Shown here: positions 10,600 to 62,742 of the stretch, piece after piece
Layout of the letters: each line of letters starts with the position of its first letter
How positions within the stretch are numbered: the first letter of the stretch is position 1
From: an uncultured delta proteobacterium
GTDB taxonomy: Bacteria; Desulfobacterota; Desulfomonilia; UBA1062
NCBI GenBank assembly: GCA_963798485.1
Contig: CAWCTR010000004.1
Coordinates: forward strand, 64,001-128,000
DNA length: 64,000 nt
Direction: 5' to 3'
The notes under the pieces: model-generated
What the model was told of the DNA's origin: nothing
Seen by the model: only the letters and a program-made list of their open reading frames with translations
Databases searched by the model: none
Made by a program: the position numbers and the translations under genes

Positions 10600-10608
10600 A
10601 CGGTACCT

Positions 10609-12378: not shown

Positions 12379-12678
12379 AGATTGCCGGACGGATCATACG
12401 GACGAAAGTCGTCTCTTCTCCTTGCGGGTGTTTCATCCCGAATTGAAACAGCTCTTTCGTAAGGAACACTCATAACCATTGATGGGATATTCCAACTTCA
12501 AAGGGTTATGCAATTACCTCTAAAATAAATTACTTGACTCAGCAATTATTGTGCACTACGGATAGTTAACATCTGAAAAGAATATATCCGACTTGAGTTT
12601 TGACCTGCGAAGAACACCTTCTGTACGGCTCCCCCAAGTCAACATTTCATCGTCGATATCTTCAGATTTGAGGTATGC

Positions 12679-12870
12679 ATGGCTAACAGATCAACGAACA
12701 CCTTTAAAAAGAAGGAACGCGAAGAGGCAAAGAGGCGCAAGAGGATTGCCAAGGAGGCCAAGAAGGTCGAACGCAAAGACCTTAAGGAAAACAAGGACCC
12801 TCTGTTAAATGATGAAGATCCGGATCTCGCGGGCATCGTTCCTGGTCCGCAACCGCGGACAGAAGAATAA
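12679..12870 (+). CDS. Small basic conserved hypothetical protein (63 aa)
   Basis: RBS GAGGT upstream. K/R-rich helix followed by a DPDLAGIVPGPQP tail resembling a recurrent small bacterial protein family. Confidence 0.7.
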   Translation: MANRSTNTFKKKEREEAKRRKRIAKEAKKVERKDLKENKDPLLNDEDPDLAGIVPGPQPRTEE

Positions 12871-13151
12871 GGAGCATAGCCCTTAAGTCGTAGTTGTATT
12901 CCCTGCTTGGAAACCTGACCTTGCGGGGCATGTTTTCCTTGACCAATAACTGCCCCTTCTCCGAGGCAGAGAAGTTTTCAACGCTTATCCATAAACAACC
13001 AACGGAATCAATTTCATCTCAAAGGCTTGAAAAATCTTTGTGCACTCATATCTGTTTTGTTGACTAAAAATTATTTCAGGTATAAATTGAATTTTGATTC
13101 AGCTTTCACTTGTTCAGGTAAACAACAAACACAAAACATGAGGAGGGTATA

Positions 13152-45174: not shown

Positions 45175-45229
45175 GTTTCATCTCAGGTGTTTATTTCTCT
45201 CTCAAGATCATGAATATGGAGGTTTCAAT

Positions 45230-47122: not shown

Positions 47123-47126
47123 CATT

Positions 47127-47163
47127 TTTGCGAGCTTCCCATGGGAATCCTTAAGCTCGCAAA
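47127..47163. terminator. Hairpin between convergent operons
   Basis: TTTGCGAGCTT...AAGCTCGCAAA, an 11-bp stem. Confidence 0.6.
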
Positions 47164-47316
47164 GCCTGTCGAATACCATGTGTTCCTCTATGTTCTATTC
47201 CTGCCCATGATTCGGATGCCTCTGCAGGATAGAACAGAGGGATTTCGATCTCCTCATCTGCTCCCTGGTAATCCGTTCCTCCTCTTATACATGGAGGGAG
47301 ATGTATTGTGATGACA

Positions 47317-48528
47317 TCAATCCACTCGAATAACCACGGCATCCCCCTGGGCAAGACCCCCGCAGATGCCGCAGACGCCGTAGCCGCCGCCCCTTCTCTT
47401 TAATTCATACATCATGGTCATCAATATGCGGCCGCCGCTTGCCCCCACCGGGTGGCCGATAGCGATGGCCCCGCCGTTGGGATTAGTCCGCTCCAGGAGC
47501 AAGCGCCACTTCTTCTCGTCCCTACCGGCCAGGATCTTTGTTGAGACAAGGGTAACAGCCGCAAAGGCCTCGTTGATCTCAATGACCTTCATATCATCGA
47601 TCGTGAGAGATGACCGCTTCAGGGCCTTTTTGATGACAAAGCCCGGCAGCTCCGCCATCCTCCTGGGTTCGCTTGCCCCGCTCGCTACGGACATGATGGT
47701 GGCCAGTGGTTTTATCCCCAAAGCCTCAGCCTTGGACCGCCGCATGATAATCACCGTCGTCGCCCCGGCGTCCAGGCCCGGGGCATTGCCCGCTGTCACC
47801 GTGGGGCTGCCGTAGATGGTCTTCAGTTTGGATAAAGCCTCCATCGTGGTATCCGGCCTGGGTAATTCATCTTTCTTGAATATGAAGGGCGTCCCTTTTT
47901 TCTGGGGGATCTCAATAGACACCAGTTCATCATTGAACCGGTCGTCCTTGTCCGCCTGGGCCCATTTTTTGTGCGACCCTACCGCCCAGGCATCCTGCTC
48001 TTCCCTGGATATGCCGTACTCGATGGCGATCTCCCCGGCATCCTTGCCCAGCGGGGTATATTCGCGGTAGGTGATGGGATTCAGATAATCCTGTACAAGA
48101 AGCGGCTTCATACCGGAGCCCCAGCGGTGGTTATTTATGAGAAGAGGCGTATTGCTCATGTTCTCGGCGCCCACGGCCATGCAGGTGTCCGCCTCATTCA
48201 GCAGGATTGCCCTGCGGCCCAGTTGGACCGCGCAGAGAGACGAGCAGCAGGCCCGGTCTATGGTCAGGGAGACTAAAGTATCGGGCAGACCTGCACGCAG
48301 AAGGGCCTGCCTTGCATTCACGTTGTCATAGAGCGCAGCCTCGGCCTGGTCGCACATGCCGTAGTACAGCTCGTCCAGGTCCTCGCCTTTCAGCCCGGAG
48401 CGTTTCAGGCTTTCTTTGATCACGATGACCCCGAGGTCAGTGCTGTGCATCTCCTTGAGCACCCCGCCGAACTTGGAAAAGGGTGTCCGTACCCCGCTTA
48501 CGATAACCACATCATCTTTGTTTTTCAT
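47317..48528 (-). CDS. Thiolase
   Basis: DRACCSS, NEAFA, GHPVG and ICGGLAQG motifs. Confidence 0.92.
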   Translation of the reverse strand: MKNKDDVVIVSGVRTPFSKFGGVLKEMHSTDLGVIVIKESLKRSGLKGEDLDELYYGMCDQAEAALYDNVNARQALLRAGLPDTLVSLTIDRACCSSLCAVQLGRRAILLNEADTCMAVGAENMSNTPLLINNHRWGSGMKPLLVQDYLNPITYREYTPLGKDAGEIAIEYGISREEQDAWAVGSHKKWAQADKDDRFNDELVSIEIPQKKGTPFIFKKDELPRPDTTMEALSKLKTIYGSPTVTAGNAPGLDAGATTVIIMRRSKAEALGIKPLATIMSVASGASEPRRMAELPGFVIKKALKRSSLTIDDMKVIEINEAFAAVTLVSTKILAGRDEKKWRLLLERTNPNGGAIAIGHPVGASGGRILMTMMYELKRRGGGYGVCGICGGLAQGDAVVIRVD

Positions 48529-48541
48529 ACAGCGCTCCTTT

Positions 48542-50008
48542 CTATCGTATCTGGTCGCCTTTGGCTATTCCGCACAGTTCTTTGGCAATCTTCTGCTTGC
48601 CCTTCATGTTCACGAGCCTTGCGATCATGATCCGCTGTGCCTGGGGTGAGCCCGCACCATGCATGGACTCGGTGAGGTAACCTACGGCAGCGGTACCCAT
48701 GGTGATGTTTTCGATAAGCCTCAATATCCTCATCCGGTATTCTGTGGGGACATCCGCCTTTGTCCGGTAGTATTTCTTCACCCACTTACCCACCACCGGC
48801 GAGTTAAGGTCGGCCTCCGACGGGCAGGTGACCACTACGCCGCCTGCAATATCCTGGGCAAGCCTGGCGATCTCATAGGGGAAGCGCGTCACGTTCTGCT
48901 TGTGCACATTGGCCAGGAGCACATCCACCAGGTATGTCCCGCTCGCCTCCTTGTGACCCTCTGATGCGCAGGCGATGCACCCGCAGAAGAGCGTCTCGTT
49001 CAAGTGGTTCATCTCGATGATCTTGTCTTTCACATGGGAGGCCTTCTCTGCACCGTTGTACTCGGCAACGGTCTGGGCAGCGCCGATAAGCACATCGCCC
49101 ACCCCCACCTTGCATGCGTAGCTCTGGCGGTGGTAGGCGGAGAAGCTCTCCACCAACTGGGTGGTGAAGTCATACTCCTTGTACATGAACACGCGTTCCC
49201 AGGGCACGAACACGTCCTCGAAGACGACCAGGGCCTCGTGGCCTCCGTAGAACATGTTGCCCCTATCCATGGTCATGCCTTCGAGTTTCCTGGTGTCGCA
49301 GGACTGCCGGCCCATGATGTAGGTGATGCCTGCTGTATCACTGGGGACTGCAAAGGCCACTGCATAATCCTTGTCCTCTTCCCGCATGGTGATGGTCGGC
49401 ATCACGATGATCTCATGGGAGTTGACCGCGCCGGTCTGGTGGGCCTTCGACCCCCTGACCACGATGCCGTCTTTACGCTCTTCTACCACATGGAGGAACA
49501 TGTCAGGGTCGAACTGTTTGTGGGGGGGCTGGGAACGGTCGCCCTTGGTATCGGTCATGGCGCCGTCGCAGACCAGGTCGTTTTCTTGAACGTATTCGAG
49601 AAATTTGAGGAAGCGCTTGTTGTACTGCGTCTTATATTTCTGATCGATGGCATAGGTAACAATAGACAGGGCATTCATGGCATCCATTCCCACGCAACGC
49701 TGGAAACAGCAGGCGGTCAGAGACCCCAGAAGCCTTCCCATCTTGCTCTTCTTCACCAAATCATCCACGCTCTGGTGGATATGGGTGAAGCGGTTGATCT
49801 TCTTGCCCGTAAGGTGTGATTTGACGGTCATGATATCTTCATATTCCGGCCTGTGGGCAAATTCGTAGGTGGCTGCCACCGCATTCATGGAGGGCCTTAT
49901 GATAGGGTCATCCACCACGTTCTCCACCTTCTTGCCGAACATGTACACGTTCAGCTTCAGCTTCCTCAAACTCTCTTCGTACTCTTTTGCATTCATGAGC
50001 TTAGTCAT
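48542..50008 (-). CDS. abfD: 4-hydroxybutyryl-CoA dehydratase/vinylacetyl-CoA isomerase (AbfD; HpaB superfamily)
   Basis: CFQRCVGMD and HRQSY.C Fe-S ligands, GAMTDTKGDRS, KAHQTG and ESMHGAGSPQAQ. Confidence 0.88.
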   Translation of the reverse strand: MTKLMNAKEYEESLRKLKLNVYMFGKKVENVVDDPIIRPSMNAVAATYEFAHRPEYEDIMTVKSHLTGKKINRFTHIHQSVDDLVKKSKMGRLLGSLTACCFQRCVGMDAMNALSIVTYAIDQKYKTQYNKRFLKFLEYVQENDLVCDGAMTDTKGDRSQPPHKQFDPDMFLHVVEERKDGIVVRGSKAHQTGAVNSHEIIVMPTITMREEDKDYAVAFAVPSDTAGITYIMGRQSCDTRKLEGMTMDRGNMFYGGHEALVVFEDVFVPWERVFMYKEYDFTTQLVESFSAYHRQSYACKVGVGDVLIGAAQTVAEYNGAEKASHVKDKIIEMNHLNETLFCGCIACASEGHKEASGTYLVDVLLANVHKQNVTRFPYEIARLAQDIAGGVVVTCPSEADLNSPVVGKWVKKYYRTKADVPTEYRMRILRLIENITMGTAAVGYLTESMHGAGSPQAQRIMIARLVNMKGKQKIAKELCGIAKGDQIR

Positions 50009-50088
50009 ATGTTCCTCCAACACCTTCATTCCATTCCGAGTCAGAACGAGGTATCTTCCTGCCTATAGTTTTCCTTTTTCATCGATAT

Positions 50089-50955
50089 TCATGGGGAAAC
50101 TTCTCCTGCATGTATCATCCAATGGGATAGGAAATCCTCTCCTGCCTTCCTTCCAAGCCTGTAATCAGCTTCTATGGATCCATCACCCATGGATAGACGC
50201 CCGGAGCGAAGAGGTCCGGGGGGCTTTATCTCACAGATCGATGCATCAGGGGGAGGGTACCGGATGAACCGGACGGCATCCCGGTATACACGGTTGAGGC
50301 GATGGATTCTGGCGCGGAGCGCTGGGTAGCCCCGCAGAAAGAAGAAGGCCAGGAACGAGTCCAGGAAGCATCCTTTGGAGGCGTTTGCCGGACGGGTGCG
50401 GATAACGACTATCTTCCGTGCACCACGGAGATATGCCTCCCGAGCGGGCAAAGGCTCTGCCACACCGCCGTCGGCGACCCGCCTGCCCTGAACCTCAATG
50501 AAGTCACGATAGAGCACCGGCAGGGCACTCGATGCCTTCAGGTAGTGTGAGAGGGTGTCTTCATCAGGATGCACAAATACCGGCTTCCCTGTCAGGGCAT
50601 CGGTCACACCTATGAGGTATTCATGGGCCGGGTTAGAGGTGGCGGACTTTGTATCGAGGGGTTCATGCTCGGCTGCATATTCCCAGAGCCAGTCCAGATC
50701 CATCAGGTGCCCGCCGCTCAAGAACCGTCTGAAACTTAAGAATTCCCCCATATTCATGGGGCCTGTGATGATCCGATAGTATCTCTGATATTGCCCGGAC
50801 AGGTAAGAAGCGAGCGTGATCGCCCCTGAAGAAACTCCTATGAGAAGATCGAAGGGATTGAAGCCCTCCTGGAGGAATGCATCGAGCACACCGGCGGCAA
50901 AGATGCCGCGCATGCCTCCGCCTTCCACGACCAGGGCTTTCTTGCCATCCGGCAT
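50089..50955 (-). CDS. Patatin-like phospholipase/esterase
   Basis: GGGMRG, GVSSG (GxSxG) and DGG motifs. Confidence 0.9.
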   Translation of the reverse strand: MPDGKKALVVEGGGMRGIFAAGVLDAFLQEGFNPFDLLIGVSSGAITLASYLSGQYQRYYRIITGPMNMGEFLSFRRFLSGGHLMDLDWLWEYAAEHEPLDTKSATSNPAHEYLIGVTDALTGKPVFVHPDEDTLSHYLKASSALPVLYRDFIEVQGRRVADGGVAEPLPAREAYLRGARKIVVIRTRPANASKGCFLDSFLAFFFLRGYPALRARIHRLNRVYRDAVRFIRYPPPDASICEIKPPGPLRSGRLSMGDGSIEADYRLGRKAGEDFLSHWMIHAGEVSP

Positions 50956-51041
50956 TATAATCCCCTTTTGGGTACCATGTAATTCATGCGTCTCTAGCCC
51001 TCACAGAGCGCCTGGAGTATGTCCCCGTATTTCTCATGACA

Positions 51042-51137
51042 TTATGAATGGTTGGCTCTTTTCTTATTCAGAAATGTTACATAGTACTGGGCCGTCTCCT
51101 GTGGTCTCTCCAGCATGGGCATGTGACCGCAGTCCAT
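51042..51137 (-). pseudogene. C-terminal remnant of an alpha/beta-hydrolase
   Basis: Translates as MDCGHMPMLERPQETAQYYVTFL..., the catalytic-His GHxPxxExP terminal motif. Confidence 0.55.
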
Positions 51138-51154
51138 TGAATGGCTCGGGCCTC

Positions 51155-51949
51155 CTATCGGTCCTTGAATTTTGGTTCGCGCTTTTCCATGAATGCGGCT
51201 GCGCCTTCCTTCTTGTCTTCACTGGCGTAGCATGTGCCGAAGAGCTCGCGCTCGAGCCTCATGCCCATGTAAAGGTCCATGGACATGCCTTCGAGCACTG
51301 CACGCAGAGCGGCCTGAACTGATACACGGCTCTTGGAGGCGATTGCACCTGCCAGCTTCATGGCCTCATCCACCACAGCCCCCTTGGCAACGGCCCGGTT
51401 CACCAGGCCATATGCCTCGGCCTGTCTGCCGTTAAGGAAATTGCCGGACAGGATGAGCTCCAGTGCCCTGGCGGGGCCGATGAGACGCGGGGTCCTCTGG
51501 GTGCCCCCGTAGCCCGGGATGATGCCGAGCTTGATCTCAGGGAGACCCAAGGTGGCGCTTTCATCTGCCAGCCTGATGTGGCAGGCTAGCGCCATCTCCA
51601 TGCCGCCACCCAGGCAGAAGCCGTTGATGGCGGCAATAATGGGCTTGTCCGCATTCATGAACAGGTGCGAGAGTTCCTGGCCCCTGATGAGTGAATCCGC
51701 CCCTTCCTGGGCAGTGGTGAAGTCGTTAAGCTCGCTGATGTCCGCCCCTGCGATGAAGGCCTTTCCTGCCCCGGTGAACACGAGCGCCCGCACATCCTTG
51801 TCTGAGAGCACCTTTAACAAGGTATCCCTGATCTCACCAAGAACAGCCCAGCTGAGCGCGTTCATGGGCGGGTTGTTGATCTCCATCAGCGCTACGCCTT
51901 TATCGCGCACGGTATATGCGCACCGTGTTCCTTCATTGACTGTCTTCAT
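51155..51949 (-). CDS. Enoyl-CoA hydratase
   Basis: AFIAGADI, LGGGMEMALAC and LPEIKLGIIPGYGGTQR motifs. Confidence 0.93.
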   Translation of the reverse strand: MKTVNEGTRCAYTVRDKGVALMEINNPPMNALSWAVLGEIRDTLLKVLSDKDVRALVFTGAGKAFIAGADISELNDFTTAQEGADSLIRGQELSHLFMNADKPIIAAINGFCLGGGMEMALACHIRLADESATLGLPEIKLGIIPGYGGTQRTPRLIGPARALELILSGNFLNGRQAEAYGLVNRAVAKGAVVDEAMKLAGAIASKSRVSVQAALRAVLEGMSMDLYMGMRLERELFGTCYASEDKKEGAAAFMEKREPKFKDR

Positions 51950-51967
51950 GGATATACCTCCATATTA

Positions 51968-52759
51968 TTATATTTTCCTGCCCGGCAGGCTCATCGAAGC
52001 GGTAATCCCGCCGTCTACCGGAAAAACCTGTCCCGTGATGTAGCTTGCCTCGTCGCTTGAAAGGAAGAGTATGGCCCAGGCAACCTCTTTCGGCACCGCG
52101 GCGCGTCTGAGCTCGGAATACTTGCCCACCTGCCCCTCCTTGCCCGCACTCCTGGCGTAATCGAAAAAGGGCTGGGTCATGCCGGTCTCGATAAGGCCCG
52201 GGCACACGGCGTTGATGCGTACATTGCAGTCGCCCACCTCGCATGCCGAGGTCTGTGTGAAGTTGATCAGCGCCGCCTTGGATGCGCTGTAGGAATTGCC
52301 GCCCGCCCCTGAGCGGATGCCTGCCACCGAGGCGATATTGATGATTGAGCCCTTACGCCTTCCTTTCATGTGAGCTATGATATGCTTTGTGGCAAAGACA
52401 GCGCCCATGACGTTGACTGCGAATACCCTGTGCCAGTCTTCCGCGGTCTGGTTCTCCAGGGGGTCGAGGCTGCCCGGTATTCCTGCGTTATTCACCAGGA
52501 TATCGATAGAGCCGAACTTTTCTATGGCAAGGCCGATCAGGTCTTTGACTTCTTCCTCCGACGATACCTCGGTCTTTCTGATGGTTACCGGCCCACCTTC
52601 GGCAGCGATCTCATCACGCACCCGGATAAGCCGCTCTTCGTTCATATCCGCAAGAACCAGGCGTGCGCCTTCGTGGGCAAAGAGCAGGGCCGTGGCCCTG
52701 CCTATGCCGCTCGACGCGCCGGTTATGATCGCCGTTTTATTGCTGAGACGTCCTTCCAT
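51968..52759 (-). CDS. Short-chain dehydrogenase/reductase
   Basis: TGASSGIG, NNAG and YSASK motifs. Start placed at 52759. Confidence 0.93.
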   Translation of the reverse strand: MEGRLSNKTAIITGASSGIGRATALLFAHEGARLVLADMNEERLIRVRDEIAAEGGPVTIRKTEVSSEEEVKDLIGLAIEKFGSIDILVNNAGIPGSLDPLENQTAEDWHRVFAVNVMGAVFATKHIIAHMKGRRKGSIINIASVAGIRSGAGGNSYSASKAALINFTQTSACEVGDCNVRINAVCPGLIETGMTQPFFDYARSAGKEGQVGKYSELRRAAVPKEVAWAILFLSSDEASYITGQVFPVDGGITASMSLPGRKI

Positions 52760-52835
52760 ATGTTTCTCCCATAATATATACTCGCCTCCCGTCACGAAGA
52801 CCGGCCTTGTATTCCTCTACGGTTCGGATCGACAT
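52737..52835 (-). pseudogene. N-terminal remnant of a second HpaB/AbfD-family gene
   Basis: RBS AAGGAAG followed by MSIRTVEEYKAGLRDGRRVYIMGE, which then runs into the SDR start region and stops after 32 codons. Confidence 0.65.
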
Positions 52836-52959: not shown

Positions 52960-53049
52960 CCACAATCCATTCAGTCCTGACACATTCACAATATGCCTGA
53001 TCATCTTGCGTTGTTTTCACCATAGAGATTCATTTGAAATACAATCTGC

Positions 53050-53165
53050 CCAATTGCAAAACTCGAAAAAAGCCGTCACCCCCGCGAAGGCAGGGGTCCA
53101 GAGATCCATGAAAAGACTGGATTCCCGCTTCCGCGGGAATGACGTTTCGGGAGTTTTGCAATTGG
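53050..53165. repeat. REP/BIME-like composite palindrome
   Basis: Outer 15-bp inverted repeat CCAATTGCAAAACTC/GAGTTTTGCAATTGG encloses GTCACCCCCGCGAAGGCAGGGGTCCAG...CTGGATTCCCGCTTCCGCGGGAATGAC. Confidence 0.85.
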
Positions 53166-53201
53166 CTCCTTCTTGATATTTTTAGAGAGAAAGGGGGGGA
53201 T

Positions 53202-53636
53202 CTAGACGGTCTTTTCAATGACATCCAGGATCTGGATGAGCTTTTTGATTTCTTTGCTTCCGACCAGTCCCTCGATCTTCTTGTTCAGCGTTTGGGCAAC
53301 AGGCAGCAACTTGATGGCCAGCTCACGCCCCTTGGGGGTGAGGTGGATCTTCATGGCCCTCCGATCTTCCTTGTCGACAAAACGTTCCACAAGGTCCTCA
53401 CGGATAAGACGATCCACAAACCCGGTGATAGCCGGACTGTCCACCTGTACCCGGTCTGCAATGTCTTTTACGGAAGTGCCGTCATTGTCCAGAAGGTCGA
53501 AGAGGATGAATGTCTGGCCCACGGTCAAACCGTATTTGGCATATTCTCTGTTGACATAGCGCCATATCCTGCGGGTCACGGCGCCGATGCGGAAACAATA
53601 GAATCCGTCAAGGATGTTCATCTTTTTCACGGTCAC
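53202..53636 (-). CDS. MarR-family transcriptional regulator
   Basis: DSPAITGFVDRL...DLVER..D.EDRR.MKIHLT.KG pattern. Confidence 0.93.
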   Translation of the reverse strand: MTVKKMNILDGFYCFRIGAVTRRIWRYVNREYAKYGLTVGQTFILFDLLDNDGTSVKDIADRVQVDSPAITGFVDRLIREDLVERFVDKEDRRAMKIHLTPKGRELAIKLLPVAQTLNKKIEGLVGSKEIKKLIQILDVIEKTV

Positions 53637-53785
53637 TCTTCAATCGTGCAAGTGTCATTTAACTCTATGAAGCGGCTCTGAGTCGTATTTTTTGACGGAG
53701 CATTCATCGAATTAAAGCGATAGGAAATTACCTTCACCCGCACGTGCTGTCAATAGAAATATCTTGACATCCTAAAAATTCCCCC

Positions 53786-53836
53786 TTGCACTGCCTGGCA
53801 TTCAGGTATATATTGTCAGCTGGCCATACCACCAGC
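53786..53836 (+). promoter_or_regulatory. Promoter and FadR/GntR-type operator of the GRE operon
   Basis: TTGCAC-17-TATATT. TGGCCATACCA (53821-53831) resembles TGGT-N3-ACCA. Confidence 0.5.
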
Positions 53837-53855
53837 CATATATAATGGAGACCCC

Positions 53856-54596
53856 ATGAAAGATATCCTGAAGCCGCTTCATTCTGACAGCCTGGTAGAG
53901 GTGTTCATCTCGCGCTTCGAAGACCTCATCCTTACCGGCAAGATCGCCATAGGCCAGAGGCTGCCTTCAGAGCGTGAGCTGGCCCTGCAGCTGGGTGTCA
54001 GCAGGCCCGTGGTGCACGAGGGGCTTGTGGATCTGGCTGCCAAGGGCCTGGTCACCATGAAGCCTCGGGTAGGGACTTTTGTGAACGACTACCGGAAAGA
54101 GGGGTCGCTCAGCATCCTGAACTCCATCATCAACTACCAGCAGGGCTCGCTTGACGAGGACCTTCTGGAAAGCCTGCTGGCCACGAGACTCCTGGTGGAG
54201 ACAGAGAACACCCGGCTCGCCGCTGCCAAGCGCACCGAAGAACACCTAAGGGAGTTTCGCGTGATCCTTGAGGCGGAAGAGGCAACAGGGCCGAAAGATG
54301 TGAAAAATATCACCGCGCTTGACTTCCGCTTCCACCATACCATCGGAATGGCATCGGGCAATGTCATTTATCCGCTGCTCATCAACTCGTTCAAACCCGT
54401 GTACATGAATTTCACCGGCATATTTTTTTCAGAACCCGCCAATGTATTGGATACGATTCGGTTCCACCGCAAGCTCGTGGATGCCATCACGGAGAAGAAC
54501 GCTCCTCGGGCGGTAAATATTATGATCGAGACACTCCACCACGGCGAAATGCATTTGCGCACTATCCTCAACCAGCCCAAAAGGAGAAGGCCATGA
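53856..54596 (+). CDS. GntR/FadR-family regulator (wHTH + FCD)
   Basis: RLPSERELALQLGVSRPVVHEGL and DFRFHHTI. Stop overlaps the next ATG. Confidence 0.93.
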   Translation: MKDILKPLHSDSLVEVFISRFEDLILTGKIAIGQRLPSERELALQLGVSRPVVHEGLVDLAAKGLVTMKPRVGTFVNDYRKEGSLSILNSIINYQQGSLDEDLLESLLATRLLVETENTRLAAAKRTEEHLREFRVILEAEEATGPKDVKNITALDFRFHHTIGMASGNVIYPLLINSFKPVYMNFTGIFFSEPANVLDTIRFHRKLVDAITEKNAPRAVNIMIETLHHGEMHLRTILNQPKRRRP

Positions 54597-57109
54597 GTAC
54601 GTCGTCAGCACTCAAAGGCGTTGCTAAGATCAAGGAACCGAAAAACCTGTCTAACCGAATAACCTGGCTGCGGGATTATTACTATAAAGGCGTGGATCGC
54701 GCATGGAACAACGAGTTCACTGCCTGGACCACAGGAACGCCCTGGGATGTGCAGTTCGACGAGATGACCTTCTATATCGTGCCCGAGACCTACCCCTTTA
54801 TGCAGACCTTCCGCTCCTCAATGCAGCAGGCGGCAAGGCCGGTGAAATTGCATCCCGACTTCTGGAAGTGGAGCCTGGTCGAGCGTAAGGCCTGGTTCGT
54901 CAGGGAAGTGATGGTGAACTATGTGCCCCGGGAGATCTTGCCCGGCGACCTCATTGCCGGGGGCCGCTTCAACCTCCAGACGTCCAAGTGCTGGACAAAA
55001 CAGGAGGCAAGGCTTCGCGACAAGCTCATCTACGGCAAAAAGGGCGCGCGAGCATCCATGAAGTGGTTCCACGACCACGGCTATGGCAACTCGGGCGCCA
55101 CGAGCGGCCACCTCATCCCGGGCTATGAACGGGCCTTGAAGATCGGATGGAGGGGCATATACGAAGACCTTGAAGATCGCTACAATACCCTGCCCGGCAA
55201 GGATAGGGAGGGCAAGAAGGGCGCCCAGCTCAGGGCCATGATGACGGCCGCCACCACGGCGCGCGACCTGGCAGCCAAATATGCCGCGCTGTGCGAGGGT
55301 ATGGCCCTCGAAGAGAAGGAGCCAGTGAGGCAAGGCGAGCTGCAGCGCATGGCAGCAATCCTCAAGCGCGTTCCCTGGGAGCCCGCGGTCACCTTTTGGG
55401 AGGCCGTACAGGCCCTGTGGATCACACATATGCTCGTCATGAGCGATGAGAACTATCCCGGCCCAGGTGTTTCCTTCGGCCGCATCGACCAGTATCTGCT
55501 GCCCTACTGGCAGCGTTCCCTTGCAGGCGGCATGGAGAGGGAAATGGGCAAGGAGATCATGAAATGCCTCTGGGTGCACGCCAATACGGTGTACGACGCC
55601 ATGATCCGCGTGGGTGACAATGGTATCACCGCGGGCTACGGACAGCTCATCACGCTCGCAGGTGTTGGTGAAAACGGCAAGGATATGACCAATGACCTGA
55701 CTTACGCCATGCTGGAGGTCATCGACGAGATGACCCCCATGCTGGAGCCCAAGCCCAACGTGCGCCTTCATCGGGGGACGCCGGAGATGCTGCTGGACAA
55801 GGTGGTGGACATGATCGCGGTAAGTCAGGGCGCGCCCTTCCTGCTCAACTTCGACGAGCGGTCGATCGCAGGGATGCTGCGCGAGGCAAAGAAGGCCGGG
55901 GTGGAACACCTCATCAACGAGACCAACGTGCACGACTATGCACCCGTGGGCTGCCTGGAGAACACCATGCAGGGCAATGACCGCTCGGGCACGGTGGACA
56001 ACAACCTGAACCTCTTAAAGGCCGTGGAACTGGCGCTGAACGACGGGAAAGACTTCTTTGATTTTACTGACCCCATAACGGCCAAGAGGGAGAAGGTGAA
56101 ACAGGCAGGCCCGAAGACCGGCGATGCCGCAGCATTTGCCGACTGGGATGCGTTCTGGAAGGCCTATGCCGAACAGACGCAGTTCATTGTGCAAAAGTGT
56201 GTGGGGCTCTACGAACTCTCCGAATCCATCCGGGCCCGGTTCTGCCCCACGCCGTACCTCTCCTGCCTGGTGAAAGGGTGTGCGGAAAAGGGGCTCGACA
56301 TCACCCAAGGGGGTGCAGAGCTGGGCTTCACAACCCTTGAGGCCGTGACCTTTGCCACCACGGTGGACTCGCTGCTGGCCATCAAAAACCTGGTGTTCGA
56401 CAAAAAGGAATGCACCATGGCAGAGATGATCGCAGCACTCAAGGCCAACTGGGATGGCTTTGAGAAGCTACAGGCCAAGGCCAGGTTCAAGGCCCCGAAA
56501 TACGGACGCGACGACGATGAGGCCGATGCCATGGCTGTAAAGGTAATGGGGCTGTGGTGCGAGGAGACCTGGAAGTACAAAACCATCTCGACAAACCGCC
56601 GGTTCCGTCCGGGCATGCTGAGCTGGAACTACTGGGTTGGCGACGGCTTCATCCTGCCGGCAAGCCCGGACGGCAGGCCCAAGGGGAGGTTCCTTTCAAA
56701 TGCCATCTGCCCGGTGAGCGGGGCGGACATCAACGGCCCCACCGCCAATGTGAACTCCGTGGGCAAGGCCATGGGAGGCAAAGACCTGCAAGGCCCGGGG
56801 GACTATAGGGGATATTACAACTATCTGCCCAACGGTGCGAGCCACACCATCACCATCAACCCCTCGCTGCTGAAGAACCCGGAGCACCGCTCAAAGTTCA
56901 AGTCCTTTTTGAGGGGATACGTGGAAAAGGGGGGCAGTGCGCTGCAGATCAATATCCTTGACGCGGATATGCTTAAACACGCCCAGAAGAGGCCCGAAGA
57001 CTACCGTTCGCTCCTGGTAAGGATAACAGGGTACAACGCGTACTTCACGAGCATCGGAAGAGAGCTGCAGGATGAGGTCATCGCCCGCCTCAGCCATGAG
57101 TCACTGTAA
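54593..57109 (+). CDS. Glycyl radical enzyme 1, uncharacterised subtype
   Basis: SFGRIDQYL, Cys loop VGCLE (Cys codon 55952) and Gly loop RITGYNAYF (Gly codon 57029). Confidence 0.92.
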   Translation: MSTSSALKGVAKIKEPKNLSNRITWLRDYYYKGVDRAWNNEFTAWTTGTPWDVQFDEMTFYIVPETYPFMQTFRSSMQQAARPVKLHPDFWKWSLVERKAWFVREVMVNYVPREILPGDLIAGGRFNLQTSKCWTKQEARLRDKLIYGKKGARASMKWFHDHGYGNSGATSGHLIPGYERALKIGWRGIYEDLEDRYNTLPGKDREGKKGAQLRAMMTAATTARDLAAKYAALCEGMALEEKEPVRQGELQRMAAILKRVPWEPAVTFWEAVQALWITHMLVMSDENYPGPGVSFGRIDQYLLPYWQRSLAGGMEREMGKEIMKCLWVHANTVYDAMIRVGDNGITAGYGQLITLAGVGENGKDMTNDLTYAMLEVIDEMTPMLEPKPNVRLHRGTPEMLLDKVVDMIAVSQGAPFLLNFDERSIAGMLREAKKAGVEHLINETNVHDYAPVGCLENTMQGNDRSGTVDNNLNLLKAVELALNDGKDFFDFTDPITAKREKVKQAGPKTGDAAAFADWDAFWKAYAEQTQFIVQKCVGLYELSESIRARFCPTPYLSCLVKGCAEKGLDITQGGAELGFTTLEAVTFATTVDSLLAIKNLVFDKKECTMAEMIAALKANWDGFEKLQAKARFKAPKYGRDDDEADAMAVKVMGLWCEETWKYKTISTNRRFRPGMLSWNYWVGDGFILPASPDGRPKGRFLSNAICPVSGADINGPTANVNSVGKAMGGKDLQGPGDYRGYYNYLPNGASHTITINPSLLKNPEHRSKFKSFLRGYVEKGGSALQINILDADMLKHAQKRPEDYRSLLVRITGYNAYFTSIGRELQDEVIARLSHESL

Positions 57110-57118
57110 AGGAAAGGC

Positions 57119-58123
57119 ATGACAAGCGCACAAAACAAACACCAGGGAACAATCCTGCGCATCCAGCGCATGTCCACCGAGGACGGGCCGGGCATCAGGA
57201 GCACGGTCTTCTTCAAGGGATGCCCGCTCTCATGCATATGGTGCCATAACCCGGAGGGCATCTCACGCGAGCCCCAGGTGCATTGGGTGAAGTCCAGGTG
57301 CATCGGCTGCAGAGGCTGCATAGAAGCCTGCCCAAAAGGGGCCCTTGCCATGGGGGACAGCGGCATAACCATTGACCGGTCGCGGTGCGACTCGTGCTCC
57401 GAGTGTGTTCAGGCCTGCCCATCCACGGCCATGGAGGCCTACGGCGAGGTCTTTTCCGCCCACGATCTGGTGCGTGAGGTCATCAAGGACAAGGTGTATT
57501 TCCAGAAGTCAGGCGGCGGGGTGACGCTGTCGGGAGGCGAACCCACCATGCAGCCGGTCTTTACCGGAGAGCTGCTTTCATCTTTCAAACAAAAAAGTGT
57601 CTATACCGCCCTTGACACCTGCGGGCAGTGTTCGTGGGAAACCCTTGAGGCCCTGCTTCCGCAGGTGGACCTGGTGCTGTACGACCTCAAAGAGCTCGAT
57701 CCGGGAAACCATAAGCGATTCACCGGCATCACCAACAAGAGGATACTGCAGAACCTCATAATGCTGGGGCGCCTTATGAAGGATCGCGGTATGCCAGGGG
57801 ATCTCTGGATACGCACACCCTTGATTCCGGGCTGCACGGCAACACCGGAAAATATCAAGGGCATCGGCGCCTTCATCAGGAAGCACTTACATTCGGTGGT
57901 AAGCAGGTGGGATCTGTGCACCTTCAATAACCTGTGCATCCACAAGTATGATGGGTTGGGGATGGACTGGCGCTTCAAAAGCTCTGTGCTCCTTGATGAG
58001 GACCAGGCACATCACTTGCTTACCCTTGCCGGGTCCTCGGGAGTCGATGCAGGGATTGTCCACCTGAGCGGGCCCATGAGAACAATCTATCCGGATATGA
58101 GTGCAGTTGGAGGAAAAATATGA
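57119..58123 (+). CDS. Glycyl-radical activating enzyme (radical SAM) with a 2x[4Fe-4S] ferredoxin insert
   Basis: DGPGIRSTVFFKGCPLSCIWCHNPE, CIGCRGCIEAC/CDSCSECVQAC and GVTLSGGEP. Confidence 0.95.
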   Translation: MTSAQNKHQGTILRIQRMSTEDGPGIRSTVFFKGCPLSCIWCHNPEGISREPQVHWVKSRCIGCRGCIEACPKGALAMGDSGITIDRSRCDSCSECVQACPSTAMEAYGEVFSAHDLVREVIKDKVYFQKSGGGVTLSGGEPTMQPVFTGELLSSFKQKSVYTALDTCGQCSWETLEALLPQVDLVLYDLKELDPGNHKRFTGITNKRILQNLIMLGRLMKDRGMPGDLWIRTPLIPGCTATPENIKGIGAFIRKHLHSVVSRWDLCTFNNLCIHKYDGLGMDWRFKSSVLLDEDQAHHLLTLAGSSGVDAGIVHLSGPMRTIYPDMSAVGGKI

Positions 58124-58968
58124 AGAAGACCTATACGAGTTTTGATGCCCTCGATATGAAGCAGTTCGAGCCCGAGGCAAAGGTGGGCCTCATCGCCACA
58201 ATAAACCACGAAGGCCTGCCGCACGTCACCCTCATCACGGCCCTGCAGGCAAAGACGCCCGAGAAGCTCATCTGGGGCCAGTTCTCCGAAGGCATGAGCA
58301 AGGAGCACGTGAAGACCAATCCGAAGACAGGCTTTGCCATCATGACCATGGACAAGAGCCTGTGGCGCGGCAAGGCGCTCTACACCCACAGGGCCGCCAG
58401 CGGTGAAGACTACGAGATGTTCAACTTGAAGCCTATGTTCCGCTACAATGCCTACTTCGGCATTCACACCGTGCACTACATGGACCTCTTTGAGACCTAC
58501 GGAAAGGAATCCCTGCCCCTTGCCCGGATCGCCCTGGGCTCTGTCCTGGCCCTGGCGGGACGATCCGCCGCGAGGCAAGGGCATGAAGAACGCATCTTAA
58601 AGCCCTGGGCAGAGGGCCTGTTCAAGAGGCTCGACACCATCAAGTTCATCTCTTACGTAGGGGGTGACGGGTTCCCGGTGATCATCCCGCTCATCGGCTG
58701 CCAGGCAGCAGACAGCACCAGGCTCGCCTTTTCGCCGTCGGCCTACGGCGAGGAGCTCAAGGCGATAAGGCCGGGTGCAACCGTTGCCGTGTTCGGCCTT
58801 ACCATGGATATGGAAGACGTGCTGGTCAGGGGCACCTTCAGCGGGTTTGAGAGGCACCGGGGCATTACGCTCGGGTGTGTGGACATCACCTGGGTTTACA
58901 ACTCCATGCCGCCGAAACCCGGCCAGATCTACCCGGACTCAGAGCTTAAGCCTGTAGTGAATTTCTGA
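58120..58968 (+). CDS. Tandem pyridoxamine 5'-phosphate oxidase-like (FMN split-barrel) protein
   Basis: Two related halves (LIATINHEGLPHVT...HVKTNPK and FISYVGGDGFPVII...AIRPGATVAV). ATGA overlap with the activase gene. Confidence 0.72.
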   Translation: MKKTYTSFDALDMKQFEPEAKVGLIATINHEGLPHVTLITALQAKTPEKLIWGQFSEGMSKEHVKTNPKTGFAIMTMDKSLWRGKALYTHRAASGEDYEMFNLKPMFRYNAYFGIHTVHYMDLFETYGKESLPLARIALGSVLALAGRSAARQGHEERILKPWAEGLFKRLDTIKFISYVGGDGFPVIIPLIGCQAADSTRLAFSPSAYGEELKAIRPGATVAVFGLTMDMEDVLVRGTFSGFERHRGITLGCVDITWVYNSMPPKPGQIYPDSELKPVVNF

Positions 58969-58982
58969 TTGGAGGAACACGC

Positions 58983-61361
58983 ATGAAATCCCAAACAGCA
59001 CAACCCAGACCCGACGGCAGGTTAACCCCGCCCGAGCGCTTTACACGCATCAAGGATGCCCTGCTCTCTCAGAGAGTGCATCTCTGTACCGAGCGGGCCC
59101 TGCTCATCACGGAGTTTTTCAAGAAGCACGACAATAAGAAAGAGCCCATGGTGATCCGCAAGGCCAAGGCGCTGCGCTACCTGCTCCAGAAGAAGTCGGT
59201 GAAGATCTTCGATGATGAGCTCATCGTCGGCAATGTGGGCGGCTTTCGGAAATCGGTTATCATGCAGCCTGAGCTCTCCGGGGTCGTCATGAGCGAGGAG
59301 CTACTCTGGATGGGCTCCCGCAAGACAAACCCCTATCCCATTTCCTGGGCGGAGCGCCTGAAGCTCGTCTTTAAGGTCATCCCGTACTGGTACTTCAGAA
59401 ATATGAACGCACGGGCATTCAAGTGGTACAGCCCGAAGCTTATCCGTTTCGTATTGGCGCAGCTTACCGCCACCAACTACCTCATCAATGAGTCCGGCGG
59501 CATAGGCCACTTCCTGCCCGATTACGGTAACATGATAAGGCTCGGCATCAAAGGCTACATGGAAACCCTTGATGAGTCGAAGTTCGACCTCCATGCAGCA
59601 GCGCTCATCGCCTGCGAGGGCCTGGCAGACTATGCAAAAAGGCTCTCTGCAGAGGCATCCAGGCTCGCATCCAAAGAGGAATCGCCCACGAGAAGGCAAG
59701 AGCTCTTTGAGATTGCGCGCGTCTGCGACAAGGTGCCCCTGGAGCCTGCCAAGACCCTGCACGAAGCCCTGCAGGCCCTGTGGCTCACCCACATGGCCGT
59801 ATGCCTTGAAGGGATCAACTCCGCCGTCTCTTTTGGGAGGATAGACCAGTACCTTTACCCGTACTACAAGGCCGATATCGCCTCCGGCAGGCTCGATGCG
59901 GAGAAGGCCCGGGAGCTCCTTCTTTGCTTCTCTGCCAAGACCACCGAGCATATGTTCCTCCTTTCCAGCAGGGTCAGCGAGTATCACGGCGGATACCTGG
60001 TGGCCCAGGCCGCTACGGTAGGAGGCATGGACAGCCAGGGCAATGATGCGGTGAACGACCTCACATACCTGTTCCTCGATGTCATGGAACTGGCGGGTCT
60101 TCGCGACCCGAACTACATGGCAAGGATCCATGCATCTTCTCCCGAGGAATATGTGCGCCGGGCCGTGGAGGTGGCATGCAAGGGTAGCAATGTGCCGGGC
60201 CTGTTCAATGATGAGGCCACCATAGCATCGCTCACCTCCCACGGTTACGCCCTCGAAGATGCCCGCGACTATGGGGTCGTGGGCTGCGTGGAACCGACCA
60301 TCCCGTCAAAGAGCTTCTGCTCCACTGATGCCGCACTCTTCAACCTGCCCTTGTGCCTGGTCCTGGCCCTGAACAAGGGCATGCGGCCGGGCACCTGGTT
60401 CAGGGTGGGTGCTCCGACACCCGATCCGGCCACGTTCAAAACCATGGAGAACCTCATCGAAGCCTTCAAGGCCCAGGTGGAATTCATGGTGAGCCGACTG
60501 ATCAAGGACATCCGGATAATCGAGCGGGCCAATCGCGATTTTCACCCCACCCCGTTTTCCTCCATGTTGGTTACAGGCTGCCTGGAGAGCGGCCGCGACG
60601 TGACGTCAGGCGGCGCACAGTTCAACTCCAGCGGTATCCAGGGCGTGGGCGTGGCGGACGTAGCTGATTCCCTTGCCGCCATCTTTGAGGTGGTGTTCAC
60701 ACGCAAGTCTTACACCCTCTCAGAGGTGATCAAGGCCATGGGGGAAAGCTTTAAGGACAAGGGGAAACTCAGCGCAGCGCTGCTCTCGGCCCCGAAGTTC
60801 GGAAACGACAACGGCATGCCTGAGCGATACGCCGATCTTGTCGTGCATATCTTCCATGATGCCTTGATGAGGTATCGCAACACACGGGGAGGCCCCTATA
60901 TATCGGGGTTCTACTCCTCGACAACCCATGTGGGCTTCGGCAGGAGGACATCTGCCCTGCCGAGCGGCAGAAAGGCGGGAGAGCCTTTTGCGGCAAGCAT
61001 GGGGTGCTGCAACGGGCGCGACAGGAACGGCCCCACAGCCCTGCTCAACTCGGTGGCTGCGATTGATTCAAGGCTGTCGCCCAACGGCTATGCCCTGAAC
61101 ATGCGCTTCGATGTATCCTCATTGAAAGGTGAAAAGGCCCTGGACACCATGACCGCCCTTACCAAGGGCTTCTTTGCCCAGGGCGGTATGGAGGTGCAGC
61201 TCAATGTGCTCGATCCGTCGGTCCTGGCCGATGCCCGGTCGCACCCCGGCAAGTACCCCGGCATCGTGGTGAGGGTTGCCGGGTACTGCGCCTACTTCGA
61301 TGAGCTTCCGGACACCGTGAAGGACGAGATAATCAGCAGGACCAGGATGGAACTGGGGTAG
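58983..61361 (+). CDS. Glycyl radical enzyme 2, uncharacterised subtype
   Basis: ERALLITE, IFDDELIVG, SFGRIDQYL, Cys loop VGCVE (Cys codon 60285) and Gly loop RVAGYCAYF (Gly codon 61281). Confidence 0.92.
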   Translation: MKSQTAQPRPDGRLTPPERFTRIKDALLSQRVHLCTERALLITEFFKKHDNKKEPMVIRKAKALRYLLQKKSVKIFDDELIVGNVGGFRKSVIMQPELSGVVMSEELLWMGSRKTNPYPISWAERLKLVFKVIPYWYFRNMNARAFKWYSPKLIRFVLAQLTATNYLINESGGIGHFLPDYGNMIRLGIKGYMETLDESKFDLHAAALIACEGLADYAKRLSAEASRLASKEESPTRRQELFEIARVCDKVPLEPAKTLHEALQALWLTHMAVCLEGINSAVSFGRIDQYLYPYYKADIASGRLDAEKARELLLCFSAKTTEHMFLLSSRVSEYHGGYLVAQAATVGGMDSQGNDAVNDLTYLFLDVMELAGLRDPNYMARIHASSPEEYVRRAVEVACKGSNVPGLFNDEATIASLTSHGYALEDARDYGVVGCVEPTIPSKSFCSTDAALFNLPLCLVLALNKGMRPGTWFRVGAPTPDPATFKTMENLIEAFKAQVEFMVSRLIKDIRIIERANRDFHPTPFSSMLVTGCLESGRDVTSGGAQFNSSGIQGVGVADVADSLAAIFEVVFTRKSYTLSEVIKAMGESFKDKGKLSAALLSAPKFGNDNGMPERYADLVVHIFHDALMRYRNTRGGPYISGFYSSTTHVGFGRRTSALPSGRKAGEPFAASMGCCNGRDRNGPTALLNSVAAIDSRLSPNGYALNMRFDVSSLKGEKALDTMTALTKGFFAQGGMEVQLNVLDPSVLADARSHPGKYPGIVVRVAGYCAYFDELPDTVKDEIISRTRMELG

Positions 61362-61483
61362 AAGACGAGTGGATGTACGAATATGCGTGAAAGGGTATTA
61401 TTGTAGGGTCATTTCGATCATCGCACAGCGGGAGTTGCTACGCTGGTATCCATGCAAGAAACTATGCTTAAGCTATGAGAGAT

Positions 61484-61603
61484 AGGTCCCCCTCCTTCGT
61501 AAGGAGGGGACAGGGGAGATTTGTTCAAAACATGTATGGATCGGTCACGACCGTTCCCTGTAAGAAAATCCCTCCTGTCCTCCCTTTACAAAAGGGAGGG
61601 ACC
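61484..61603. repeat. Second REP-like family: inverted pair of hairpins
   Basis: GGTCCCCCTCCTTCGTAAGGAGGGGACAGGGGAGATTT ... AAATCCCTCCTGTCCTCCCTTTACAAAAGGGAGGGACC. Confidence 0.75.
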
Positions 61604-61725
61604 TTTCTGCACGTTTCCCAGCATCTAAACTGATACGTTATATCCTACTGATGGTACTGTCATGAAATCAGGTTTTTTCGGATGCGCCCAAGGCTAGGTG
61701 GCAGTATACTTTCGCCGTGACTGCT

Positions 61726-62742
61726 TCACCCGAGATACTCGCGATACACCGATGAGAATCTCCTGAGTTCTTTATAATCCATAACCGTGGACATGGGGAG
61801 GTTTGTCTCCTCCACCCCGGCCTCCCTTGCCGAGGCAACAGGGTTGAGGCCGCCTAACAGGATGATGCCCATCTTATTGATGTCCACACTCACCTGACAG
61901 ACGCTCTCGCCCATCTTACCCATGGAGATCACCGGCTGCATGTCGACGCCTTTTAACAGTTCGATGACCTCTTCCACCCCGTCCCTGCACACCCCGGCAA
62001 CCTCGCTGAAGTTAGCCAGGATCTTTCCCTCACCCCTTCTCAGAACCTCCCGAACGGCCGTCATCCGTGCGCTGATGAAGGCCTCCGATGGATCCAGGGA
62101 GGTTCCGGAGTAGTGGATGAGGTCCGCAAAACGCATGGGTTTATGTTCACTTATCTGGAGGATGCCGCCGAATTTTGACTCCAGAGGGATGCCGCGTTTT
62201 AGCAGCATACCGGAAAACACGATGCTGCACACCGTAGCAAAACCGATGCACCCTGGCGGCACATGCACGTCGCCTAAAAAGGCCCCTTCGGGCGCCACGG
62301 CCACCAGGTCGCTTACACAGTAACCCTTTTCAAAGGCCGACTTCATCCCCTTGAGTGCATCCTTGAAACTTTCCCGGGGAAAGAACGAGACATTACTGGG
62401 GATAAGGCCCTTGCCTGCGGTTGCATCGAAGGTGGTCTTGTAGGCAAGGATCTCCATACGGGAGATGCAGTAGCCGACCTTGTCCTGGACCCTGGCGTTG
62501 CGGAGCTCCTCTATGCCTTTTTCCGTGATGAGCCTGCCGTCCCTCCTCCCGATAAACCGTGTAAGCTCGCGCTGGTCCATGAATTGAAGGTGATAGCGGA
62601 CGGCGCGCTCGCTCAGGTTGATCCCGTATTCCTTCATCCTCCTGGCGATGATGCGCGCGCCGAGCGGTTGCCCTGCATGGTTGAGGATTCTCAGGATCAG
62701 GATGCTCTTCCGTTCCATCTCATCATATGCAAACATGTTCAT
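61726..62742 (-). CDS. nrpR: NrpR-family transcriptional repressor (wHTH + single NRD/DUF128 domain)
   Basis: LSERAVRYHL, GFATVCSI, YSGTSLDPSEAFI and GGLNPVA motifs. Confidence 0.85.
   Translation of the reverse strand: MNMFAYDEMERKSILILRILNHAGQPLGARIIARRMKEYGINLSERAVRYHLQFMDQRELTRFIGRRDGRLITEKGIEELRNARVQDKVGYCISRMEILAYKTTFDATAGKGLIPSNVSFFPRESFKDALKGMKSAFEKGYCVSDLVAVAPEGAFLGDVHVPPGCIGFATVCSIVFSGMLLKRGIPLESKFGGILQISEHKPMRFADLIHYSGTSLDPSEAFISARMTAVREVLRRGEGKILANFSEVAGVCRDGVEEVIELLKGVDMQPVISMGKMGESVCQVSVDINKMGIILLGGLNPVASAREAGVEETNLPMSTVMDYKELRRFSSVYREYLG

Follow-up and report, generated by a model that had tools for sequence, protein, structure and literature searches.

Glycyl radical enzymes (GREs), which are oxygen-sensitive, catalyse some of the most difficult reactions of anaerobic metabolism. 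The described enzymes nearest to those considered here are the glycerol and propanediol dehydratases (GD, 1r8w, and PD, 5i2a/5i2g), which are B12-independent 1,2-eliminases that cleave C-O bonds, and PFL2 of Archaeoglobus fulgidus (2f3o), whose function is debated according to the accessible part of a 2026 GRE review. Other described systems are multisubunit, joining a catalytic GRE to a small co-encoded protein: benzylsuccinate synthase (BSS; beta and gamma subunits), (1-methylalkyl)succinate synthase (beta, gamma and delta) and 4-hydroxyphenylacetate decarboxylase (HPAD; gamma). The accessory subunits listed in the same part of that review are HiPIP-like [4Fe-4S] or rubredoxin-like only. Here we describe an operon at positions 53856..61361 of a 64,000-nt window (the whole stretch of DNA analysed, positions 64,001 to 128,000 of contig CAWCTR010000004.1 of an uncultured delta proteobacterium), which encodes in order a GntR/FCD regulator, a first GRE (GRE1), a radical SAM activase, a tandem split-barrel protein of PNPOx-like fold (ORF4) and a second GRE (GRE2). 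The conserved unit is GRE1-activase-ORF4, rather than the two GREs, and modelling suggests that ORF4 is most likely an accessory subunit of a kind new among GREs. On balance we think it probable that the operon combines this cassette, with ORF4 as accessory subunit of GRE1, and a GRE2 that leans on the cassette activase.

The cassette consists of GRE1 (838 aa; 54593..57109), the activase (334 aa; 57119..58123) and ORF4 (282 aa; 58120..58968), all on the + strand. The ORF4 family has 3579 proteins at E ≤ 0.001, the best 120 of the 3579 being 67-95% identical to the query. A scan for two ORF4 motifs in one genome per species gave 501 matches, 489 of them encoding a relative; 80 loci were taken, and neighbours were counted only at loci with room for them (68 with at least 3.8 kb upstream; 62 with at least 2.6 kb downstream, for GRE2). 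A GRE1 orthologue (68-95% identical) lies upstream on the same strand at 68 of 68 loci, and an activase lies between GRE1 and ORF4 at 65 of these 68; at three activase-less loci (L064, L073 and L075) ORF4 stands directly behind GRE1. GRE2 follows ORF4 at 15 of the 62 loci with room for it, and two shorter loci also show it. The five-gene order that the original prediction, made from the sequence alone, had offered as a unit is therefore a minority form, while the PNPOx-like helper that it proposed is upheld, being tightly tied to GRE1 in evolution. When 886 ORFs of the 80 loci were clustered, the only conserved neighbours were GRE1, the activase, ORF4, GntR, GRE2 and a syntenic NrpR/YggS pair; greedy ORF picking gave some antisense artefacts (clusters 10 and 15). 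Transporter, dehydrogenase and microcompartment genes are not conserved around the cassette at these 80 loci.

Breaks in the cassette are rare: one locus (L059, 4472-8001) has about 3.5 kb inserted between activase and ORF4, and another (L065, 1-2085) has 2 kb upstream of ORF4 that holds neither activase nor GRE1. Two further loci carry an additional GRE-activase pair, 31-40% identical to the window's, within a few kb of the cassette (L025, 13538-16673; L035, 10233-13545), in what are GRE-rich lineages.

The same partnership appears in 301 evenly sampled genomes of the phylum, where GRE1-like proteins (E ≤ 1e-100) occur in 41 genomes and ORF4-like proteins (E ≤ 1e-5) in 40, all 40 lying within the 41. 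The sole GRE1-like genome lacking an ORF4-like gene (G091) is 93% complete, and its GRE lies close to the end of a contig. Nineteen of the genomes bear orthologues (GRE at least 68% identical, ORF4 48-100%), and 22 bear a sister subfamily whose GREs, about 800 aa long, are 45-53% identical to GRE1, and whose ORF4-like proteins are 23-34% identical to ORF4. Six sister loci were taken, and three of them, those annotated, show the same GRE-activase-ORF4 order. Since sequence motifs and gene order are common to both subfamilies, the partnership of GRE1 and ORF4 predates their split. The clade is sizeable, one of its two subfamilies alone spanning 489 species-level genomes, and its novelty lies in the constant pairing, in the genomes searched, of these GREs with a duplicated split-barrel protein, rather than in the presence of two GREs.

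ORF4 is barely recognisable by sequence. It has no solved sequence relative, the sole row returned being a chance match to myoglobin (E 0.97), and at default settings it gives no Pfam match; at a loose setting PNPOx_N reaches 18.5 bits, against a threshold of 28.1 that three sister proteins pass (40.8, 34.5 and 28.6 bits). A PF01243 match is precomputed for many of its orthologues. The fold is clearer: the AF2 monomer model (pLDDT 79.8) superposes on 2htd (VIA-align Z 12.0, rmsd 3.9, 119 aligned), Foldseek agrees, and the further matches are PNPOx-like split barrels that bind FMN, F420 or haem (Z 12.0 to 9.6). It is the N-terminal half that matches such proteins (2htd, general stress protein 26, HupZ, Rv2074, the D. 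vulgaris FMN-binding protein). These are homodimers of one barrel, whereas ORF4 has two diverged barrels in one chain. Its two halves are mutually homologous (hhalign 97.8%, E 6.8e-13, 81 columns), so the description as a tandem split barrel, also advanced in the original prediction, is correct; Pfam on the C-terminal half alone finds no match for the window's ORF4 and gives E of 0.044 and 0.11 for two sister proteins. There are no Cys clusters in ORF4.

Relative to the PNPOx-like proteins, ORF4 also adds a conserved loop and tail, predicted to serve in docking, and is never found without its GRE in the genomes searched. The loop bears the motif FRYNAY (from 58438) and the tail the motif WVYNSMPP..G (from 58891), of which RYN[AS]Y and PP..G are invariant across the orthologue and sister subfamilies. 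The best-conserved parts of the protein, loop 100-120 and C-terminal tail 258-272, are both of low confidence in the monomer model, which suggests that they become ordered on a partner.

Modelling points to GRE1 as that partner. The complex was modelled from ORF4 and GRE1(1-718), the glycyl radical domain (719-838) being left out of the chain. Three runs gave ipSAE of 0.85, 0.84 and 0.76 (median 0.84), the best of three controls giving 0.00; the mark reached is one passed by 116 of 157 solved complexes and by 2 of 215 mismatched pairs. The runs had a partner pLDDT of 87 or more and shared no less than 75% of their contacts. Recall of a known complex is an unlikely source of the model, because ORF4 has no solved sequence relative. 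The predicted interface on ORF4 comprises loop 105-116, tail 261-282 and residues 18-20, 55-58, 161-164 and 228-234; that on GRE1 comprises the family-specific N-terminal region (29-129, mainly its helix 64-80) together with loops 336-347, 494-497 and 679-686. Segments 337-348 and 678-699 of GRE1 fall below pLDDT 50 in its monomer model, which fits loops that order only in the complex. Interface residues of ORF4 are better conserved than the rest, both among orthologues (0.91 vs 0.74) and to the sister proteins (0.33 vs 0.19).

GRE1 loops 336-347 and 679-686 align to pocket-lining segments of GD. The corresponding GD pocket residues we take to be Tyr339 and Tyr640; at the first of these (presumed number), GRE1 has a two-residue deletion and GRE2 an Ala by alignment. 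In the model ORF4 thus touches loops of the barrel mouth, much as the BSS beta-subunit hairpin does at its channel, which it blocks to substrate according to the accessible part of the 2026 review. By this analogy ORF4 may cap or complete the mouth of the GRE1 active site.

It is also conceivable, if rather unlikely, that ORF4 is no subunit but a free-standing flavoenzyme of the same pathway, one that makes the GRE1 substrate or converts its product, for example by redox chemistry on an aldehyde, imine or enol. The N-terminal domain does have the PNPOx/FMN/F420-binding split-barrel fold (Z 12.0 to 10), many members of which are oxidoreductases, and strict co-occurrence is equally expected of a pathway partner. 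This explanation has to reckon with a complex model that is strong and reproducible (0.84 vs 0.00), with the burial in the interface of the very loop and tail of ORF4 that are best conserved and disordered alone, and with the 80 loci, where no electron-donor or electron-acceptor gene accompanies the cassette. The least probable of the alternatives we weighed has ORF4 dedicated to the activase, whose [4Fe-4S] cluster it would reduce in place of a flavodoxin. Flavin reductases do occur among split-barrel proteins, the start of ORF4 overlaps the activase stop, and activases need a one-electron donor (a heading of the 2026 review); but ORF4 stays behind GRE1 where the activase is missing (the three loci named above, and G297), and the predicted interface of ORF4 is with GRE1.

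A subunit role for ORF4, which we prefer to both, has several points against it. Binding is predicted by a single structure prediction on a truncated chain, in which the ORF4 tail could partly fill the space of the left-out glycyl radical domain. The GRE1 side of the interface is no better conserved than the rest among orthologues (0.80 vs 0.77) and is less conserved to the sister subfamily (0.29 vs 0.47), a divergence that fits co-divergence of an interface, but also plain surface drift. No fusion of ORF4 to a GRE or activase was found among longer proteins, itself weak evidence. Finally, the genomes are related and the counts drawn from them are not independent, so that all the co-occurrence figures, those for GRE2 included, overstate the support.

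In the open full-text literature and the accessible part of the 2026 review, no GRE is described with a split-barrel, PNPOx-like or flavoprotein accessory subunit, which bears out the original prediction that such a partner belongs to no characterised GRE system; the same part of the review mentions flavin only for an unrelated monooxygenase. The nearest report is of LssP, an expressed PNPOx-like protein with no assigned role, encoded in the operon of limonenylsuccinate synthase, a fumarate-adding GRE (PMC12583861, as far as that text was accessible). LssP, likened here to ORF4 by description only, may be another example of a GRE accompanied by a split-barrel protein. In the accessible part of a Desulfatiglans paper a PNPOx gene stands beside UbiD carboxylases, not in this cassette, and what is accessible of a paper on the benzene 'Magic cluster' is unrelated to it. 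The system described here likewise joins a catalytic GRE to a small co-encoded protein, as the multisubunit GREs do, but ORF4 is a 282-aa duplicated PNPOx-like barrel, and GRE1 has the CXE loop of eliminases; GRE1 scores 181 bits (4pkc) and 173 bits (9o8u) against succinate synthases and 271-283 bits against eliminases. Should ORF4 prove to be a subunit, the GRE superfamily would have a wider range of architectures than is known at present, and perhaps flavin chemistry too.

Both GREs match PF02901 and PF01228 above threshold, and both fit the Gly-loop pattern R-[VI]-x-G-[YFW] together with a catalytic Cys loop. The key residues of GRE1 are H173 (55109-55111), C454 (55952-55954), E456 (55958-55960) and G813 (57029-57031), with C454 and E456 in the Cys loop GCLE and G813 in the Gly loop RITGY. 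Across 20 GRE1 orthologues and three sister proteins the Cys loop YAPVGCLENT.xG.DRSGTVD and the Gly loop LLVR[IV]TGYNAYF are invariant. The N-terminal 165 residues are family-specific in sequence: the Pfam alignment begins at residue 170, and the alignment of GRE1 with GRE2 (31% identity) only at residues 166/169. Nonetheless the AF2 model of GRE1 (mean pLDDT 79.6) superposes from residue 16 on, and about equally well, on every solved eliminase and isomerase, so its N-terminus is canonical in fold and unrecognisable in sequence. The matches include GD 1r8w (Z 31.0, rmsd 3.2, 706 aligned, 25% identity), PD 5i2g (Z 30.7), 2f3o (Z 30.7, 29% identity) and CutC, HypD, PflD and YbiW (Z about 30); identity to any solved GRE is at most 29%.

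GRE1 thus shares with GD and PD the ten-stranded barrel, and the two systems share a ferredoxin-insert activase; the CXE loop, the His aligned to GD His164 and the Gly loop are kept in both GREs of the operon. The differences are that structure-based identity of GRE1 to GD and PD is only 25-26%, that no equivalog cut-off is reached, that GD and PD have no split-barrel partner and that the cassette operon has no microcompartment or aldehyde-processing gene. The best solved sequence match of both GREs is 2f3o (303 bits for GRE1, 503 for GRE2), which has the same CXE loop and an Asp at +14 from the Cys; its structure-based identity to GRE1 is 29%, and no split-barrel partner is reported for it.

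Neither GRE reaches the cut-off of any NCBIfam equivalog for a characterised family (HypD, CutC, HpsG/HpfG, indoleacetate or hydroxyphenylacetate decarboxylase, PFL). Scores for GRE1 and GRE2 are 341 and 487 bits with the HypD model (cut-off 1100), 318 and 480 with CutC (1050), and, with the HpfG/HpsG models (1000), 368/353 and 467/461, 368 being the best equivalog score of GRE1; the broad subfamily TIGR01774 gives 412 and 623 bits (678). A pyruvate or ketobutyrate formate-lyase was considered and rejected, as the loop is G-C-[LV]-E in both GREs, with one Cys in place of a Cys-Cys pair, and TIGR01255 gives only 89 and 142 bits against its cut-off of 994. An enzyme of fumarate-adding or HPAD type was likewise rejected: genes for small Fe-S subunits are missing, and the HPAD and indoleacetate decarboxylase models score far below their cut-offs. 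The original prediction had called the system undescribed, and these scores, with the low identity of GRE1 to solved GREs, leave that standing; whole GRE clades are without assignment according to the accessible part of the 2026 review.

As to the type of chemistry, the same source gives the catalytic set of eliminases that cleave C-O bonds as the CXE motif, Glu435 (the general base) and His164. The CXE motif is present in both proteins (C454-L-E456 in GRE1, C435-V-E437 in GRE2), as is the aligned His, for which reason both are probably eliminase/isomerase-type enzymes, judging by sequence. The Asp at +14 from the Cys is kept in GRE2, as in GD and 2f3o; in GRE1 the Asp is one position further.

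GRE2 (792 aa; 58983..61361, + strand) carries PFL-like and Gly_radical domains, and belongs to a separate, diol-dehydratase-like family that usually lacks an adjoining activase. Its key residues are H176, C435, E437, D449 and G767 (61281-61283), its loops GCVE (C435, E437) and RVAGY (G767), and GD 1r8w is its next best solved relative (483 bits) after 2f3o; GD His164, Cys433, Glu435 and Asp447 all align to identical residues in GRE2. The original prediction was right, then, that the operon holds two divergent GREs, each keeping catalytic Cys and Gly, and it had gone on to propose either a heteromeric GRE sharing one activase or two sequential radical steps. In the 301 genomes, GRE2 orthologues (58-76% identical; the next class begins at 45%) occur in 13 other genomes, making 14 with the window's. 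The cassette, in orthologue or sister form, is present in 13 of these 14, vs 41 of 301 overall. In only three of the 13 does GRE2 adjoin the cassette, after ORF4 in the window and in G115, and before the sister GRE in G054. In the last (L099 = G054:C6:31000-45000, 3398-10049, minus strand) a GRE2 orthologue (59%) is followed by a sister GRE, an activase and an ORF4-like gene.

Away from the cassette, GRE2 has no activase homologue within about 6 kb at 8 of 8 loci, and the activase family model finds none over its cut-off on the GRE2 contig in 5 of 5 genomes checked. Since the family lacks activases at these eight loci and has the cassette in 13 of its 14 genomes, it probably uses the cassette activase; most likely GRE2 depends on it, and the present lineage would have fixed that dependence when GRE2 was brought into the operon. 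A second novelty of the system would be a GRE family that has no activase of its own and is bound to the GRE1-activase-ORF4 cassette. Neighbours of GRE2 elsewhere vary, one family having TetR and two acyl-CoA dehydrogenases and others unrelated genes, and are too thin to name a substrate. In one genome (L093) the orthologue has TetR, AbfD-like and SDR genes beside it.

Such sharing also faces counter-evidence. One genome (G239) has a GRE2 orthologue and no detected cassette. The accessible part of the 2026 review reports cross-activation only between GREs with near-identical Gly loops, and sharing seems to be without precedent for loops as different as RITGYNA (GRE1) and RVAGYCA (GRE2); if true, one activase serving two very different GREs runs against that view of specificity. 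In the source genome, moreover, there are three GREs but just two activases that exceed the cut-off, the cassette's and one beside GRE3 on another contig; the GRE3-linked activase is an equally open candidate for GRE2. The Gly loop of GRE3, RISGYNAYF, is closer to that of GRE1 than GRE2's is. GRE3 itself (L098 = G000:C2:10000-28000, 6346-14378) is a 998-aa protein whose N-terminus is extended by about 200 residues without a Pfam match, and its cluster comprises TetR, GRE3, activase, SDR, enoyl-CoA hydratase and ADP-forming CoA ligase, with a START-domain protein upstream.

From these observations one could argue that GRE2 is a chance neighbour, activated by another activase such as the GRE3-linked one: its orthologues lie mostly elsewhere among unrelated genes, its Gly loop is unlike that of GRE1, and a second activase is at hand. 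We regard this as improbable, because co-occurrence in 13 of 14 genomes stands against a background of 41 in 301, and because two different architectures join GRE2 to the cassette, with tight spacing in the operon. The opposite extreme, in which GRE1 and GRE2 form a heteromeric GRE or perform two obligatory sequential radical steps on one substrate, is a shade less probable still. It can call on the common operon, with 14 nt between ORF4 and GRE2, on the same 13 of 14 genomes and on the two independent gene orders; but GRE2 is next to ORF4 at only those 15 of 62 cassette loci and an orthologue of it is found in only 13 of the 41 cassette genomes, so that GRE1 must work without GRE2 in most hosts, and GRE2 lacks the N-terminal sequence of GRE1. 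Of the earlier proposal, then, the sharing of one activase is plausible, given the co-occurrence and the two arrangements, while an obligate GRE1:GRE2 heteromer is unlikely, GRE1 being mostly without an adjacent GRE2.

In the mechanism that we favour, GRE1 would be the catalytic subunit, acting through the Cys-x-Glu loop and His of eliminase/isomerase-type enzymes, after the radical SAM activase had installed the glycyl radical on G813. ORF4 would dock, by its FRYNAY loop and its C-terminal PP..G tail, on the family-specific N-terminal helices of GRE1 and two loops at the barrel mouth, and would most likely gate or complete the active site, perhaps with a flavin bound. The GntR/FCD protein would sense substrate or product, probably a small carboxylate, and control the operon. 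GRE2, set behind the cassette in this lineage, would most likely depend on its activase, and may act in the same pathway. A bolder version, which we put forward as a speculation and think doubtful, makes GRE1 and ORF4 the first PFL-like GRE with a flavin-carrying subunit at the active-site mouth: the flavin would exchange electrons with the substrate radical and so allow a net redox reaction, and GRE2, of a family unable to exist without the cassette, would be activated in trans by the cassette activase, giving a two-enzyme radical pathway of anoxic peat and sediment bacteria. To our knowledge ribonucleotide reductase is the only known GRE that performs a net redox reaction.

The activase scores 314 bits with TIGR02494 (cut-off 174), and has CX3CX2C at residue 35 and ferredoxin CX2CX2C motifs at 61 and 90, making it a radical SAM protein with a two-cluster ferredoxin insert, as had been proposed. 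The regulator (246 aa; 53856..54596, + strand) has an N-terminal GntR winged helix (PF00392, 62.9 bits) and a C-terminal all-helical FCD domain (PF07729, 63.9 bits; FadR_C, PF07840, 67.4 bits). It reaches no NCBIfam equivalog cut-off for a named regulator; NanR, FadR, LldR, PdhR and GlcC are resembled, all with scores far below their cut-offs. A GntR homologue lies upstream of GRE1 at 32 of 62 related loci with room for it. Sensing of a small carboxylate, suggested by this sequence resemblance, is a weak hint to the substrate.

The five genes are co-directional and tightly packed. Reading the sequence directly, we found ATGA overlaps at 54593 (GntR stop, GRE1 start) and 58120 (activase stop, ORF4 start), each preceded by a purine-rich ribosome-binding site; the coordinates leave gaps of 9 nt between GRE1 and the activase and of 14 nt between ORF4 and GRE2. 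A tightly coupled operon had been claimed with just these features. With junctions that are either overlaps or gaps of 9 and 14 nt, no gene for a small Fe-S subunit fits within the operon, and a Pfam scan of it found neither such a gene nor one for a microcompartment or an aldehyde or alcohol dehydrogenase, in line with the absence of accessory genes noted at the outset. A scan of 53000-62000 for promoters and terminators gave matches no commoner than in shuffled sequence and did not resolve the operon boundaries. Twenty sequencing runs from 14 studies are on record as containing the stretch or parts of it, sediment, peat and wetland metagenomes among them; none of the 20 listed runs is an RNA run, and at least half of the sampled words are in just one run.

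Upstream of the operon, at 43993-52795, lies a dense lipid/acyl-CoA region, which encodes an HMG-CoA reductase, an AMP-binding ligase, a thiolase, an AbfD/HpaB-fold protein (probably of 4-hydroxybutyryl-CoA dehydratase type), a patatin-like lipase, an enoyl-CoA hydratase (ECH) and an SDR. The operon had been placed in an acyl-CoA catabolic neighbourhood, but these genes are not conserved beside the cassette, and we rejected an acyl-CoA context for it: of the 80 loci, only three have ECH-like matches, which are 24-29% identical.

We lastly note some other features of the window. (i) Just upstream of GntR, at 53139-53681, is a 180-aa ORF with no Pfam or NCBIfam match that is not conserved at related loci. 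(ii) After the operon, at 61726-62742 on the minus strand, lies an NrpR-type nitrogen regulator, an archaeal-style repressor, beside YggS; the pair is syntenic in close relatives. (iii) Positions 1-12378 take in an open frame of more than 3500 aa that is cut off by the start of the window; scanned from base 4000 on, it shows 22 YDG domains along with MBG domains, and behind it at 10609-12378 is a ShlB/FhaC-type outer-membrane transporter. The arrangement resembles two-partner secretion of a giant exoprotein, and it explains the odd AT skew at 4-8 kb.

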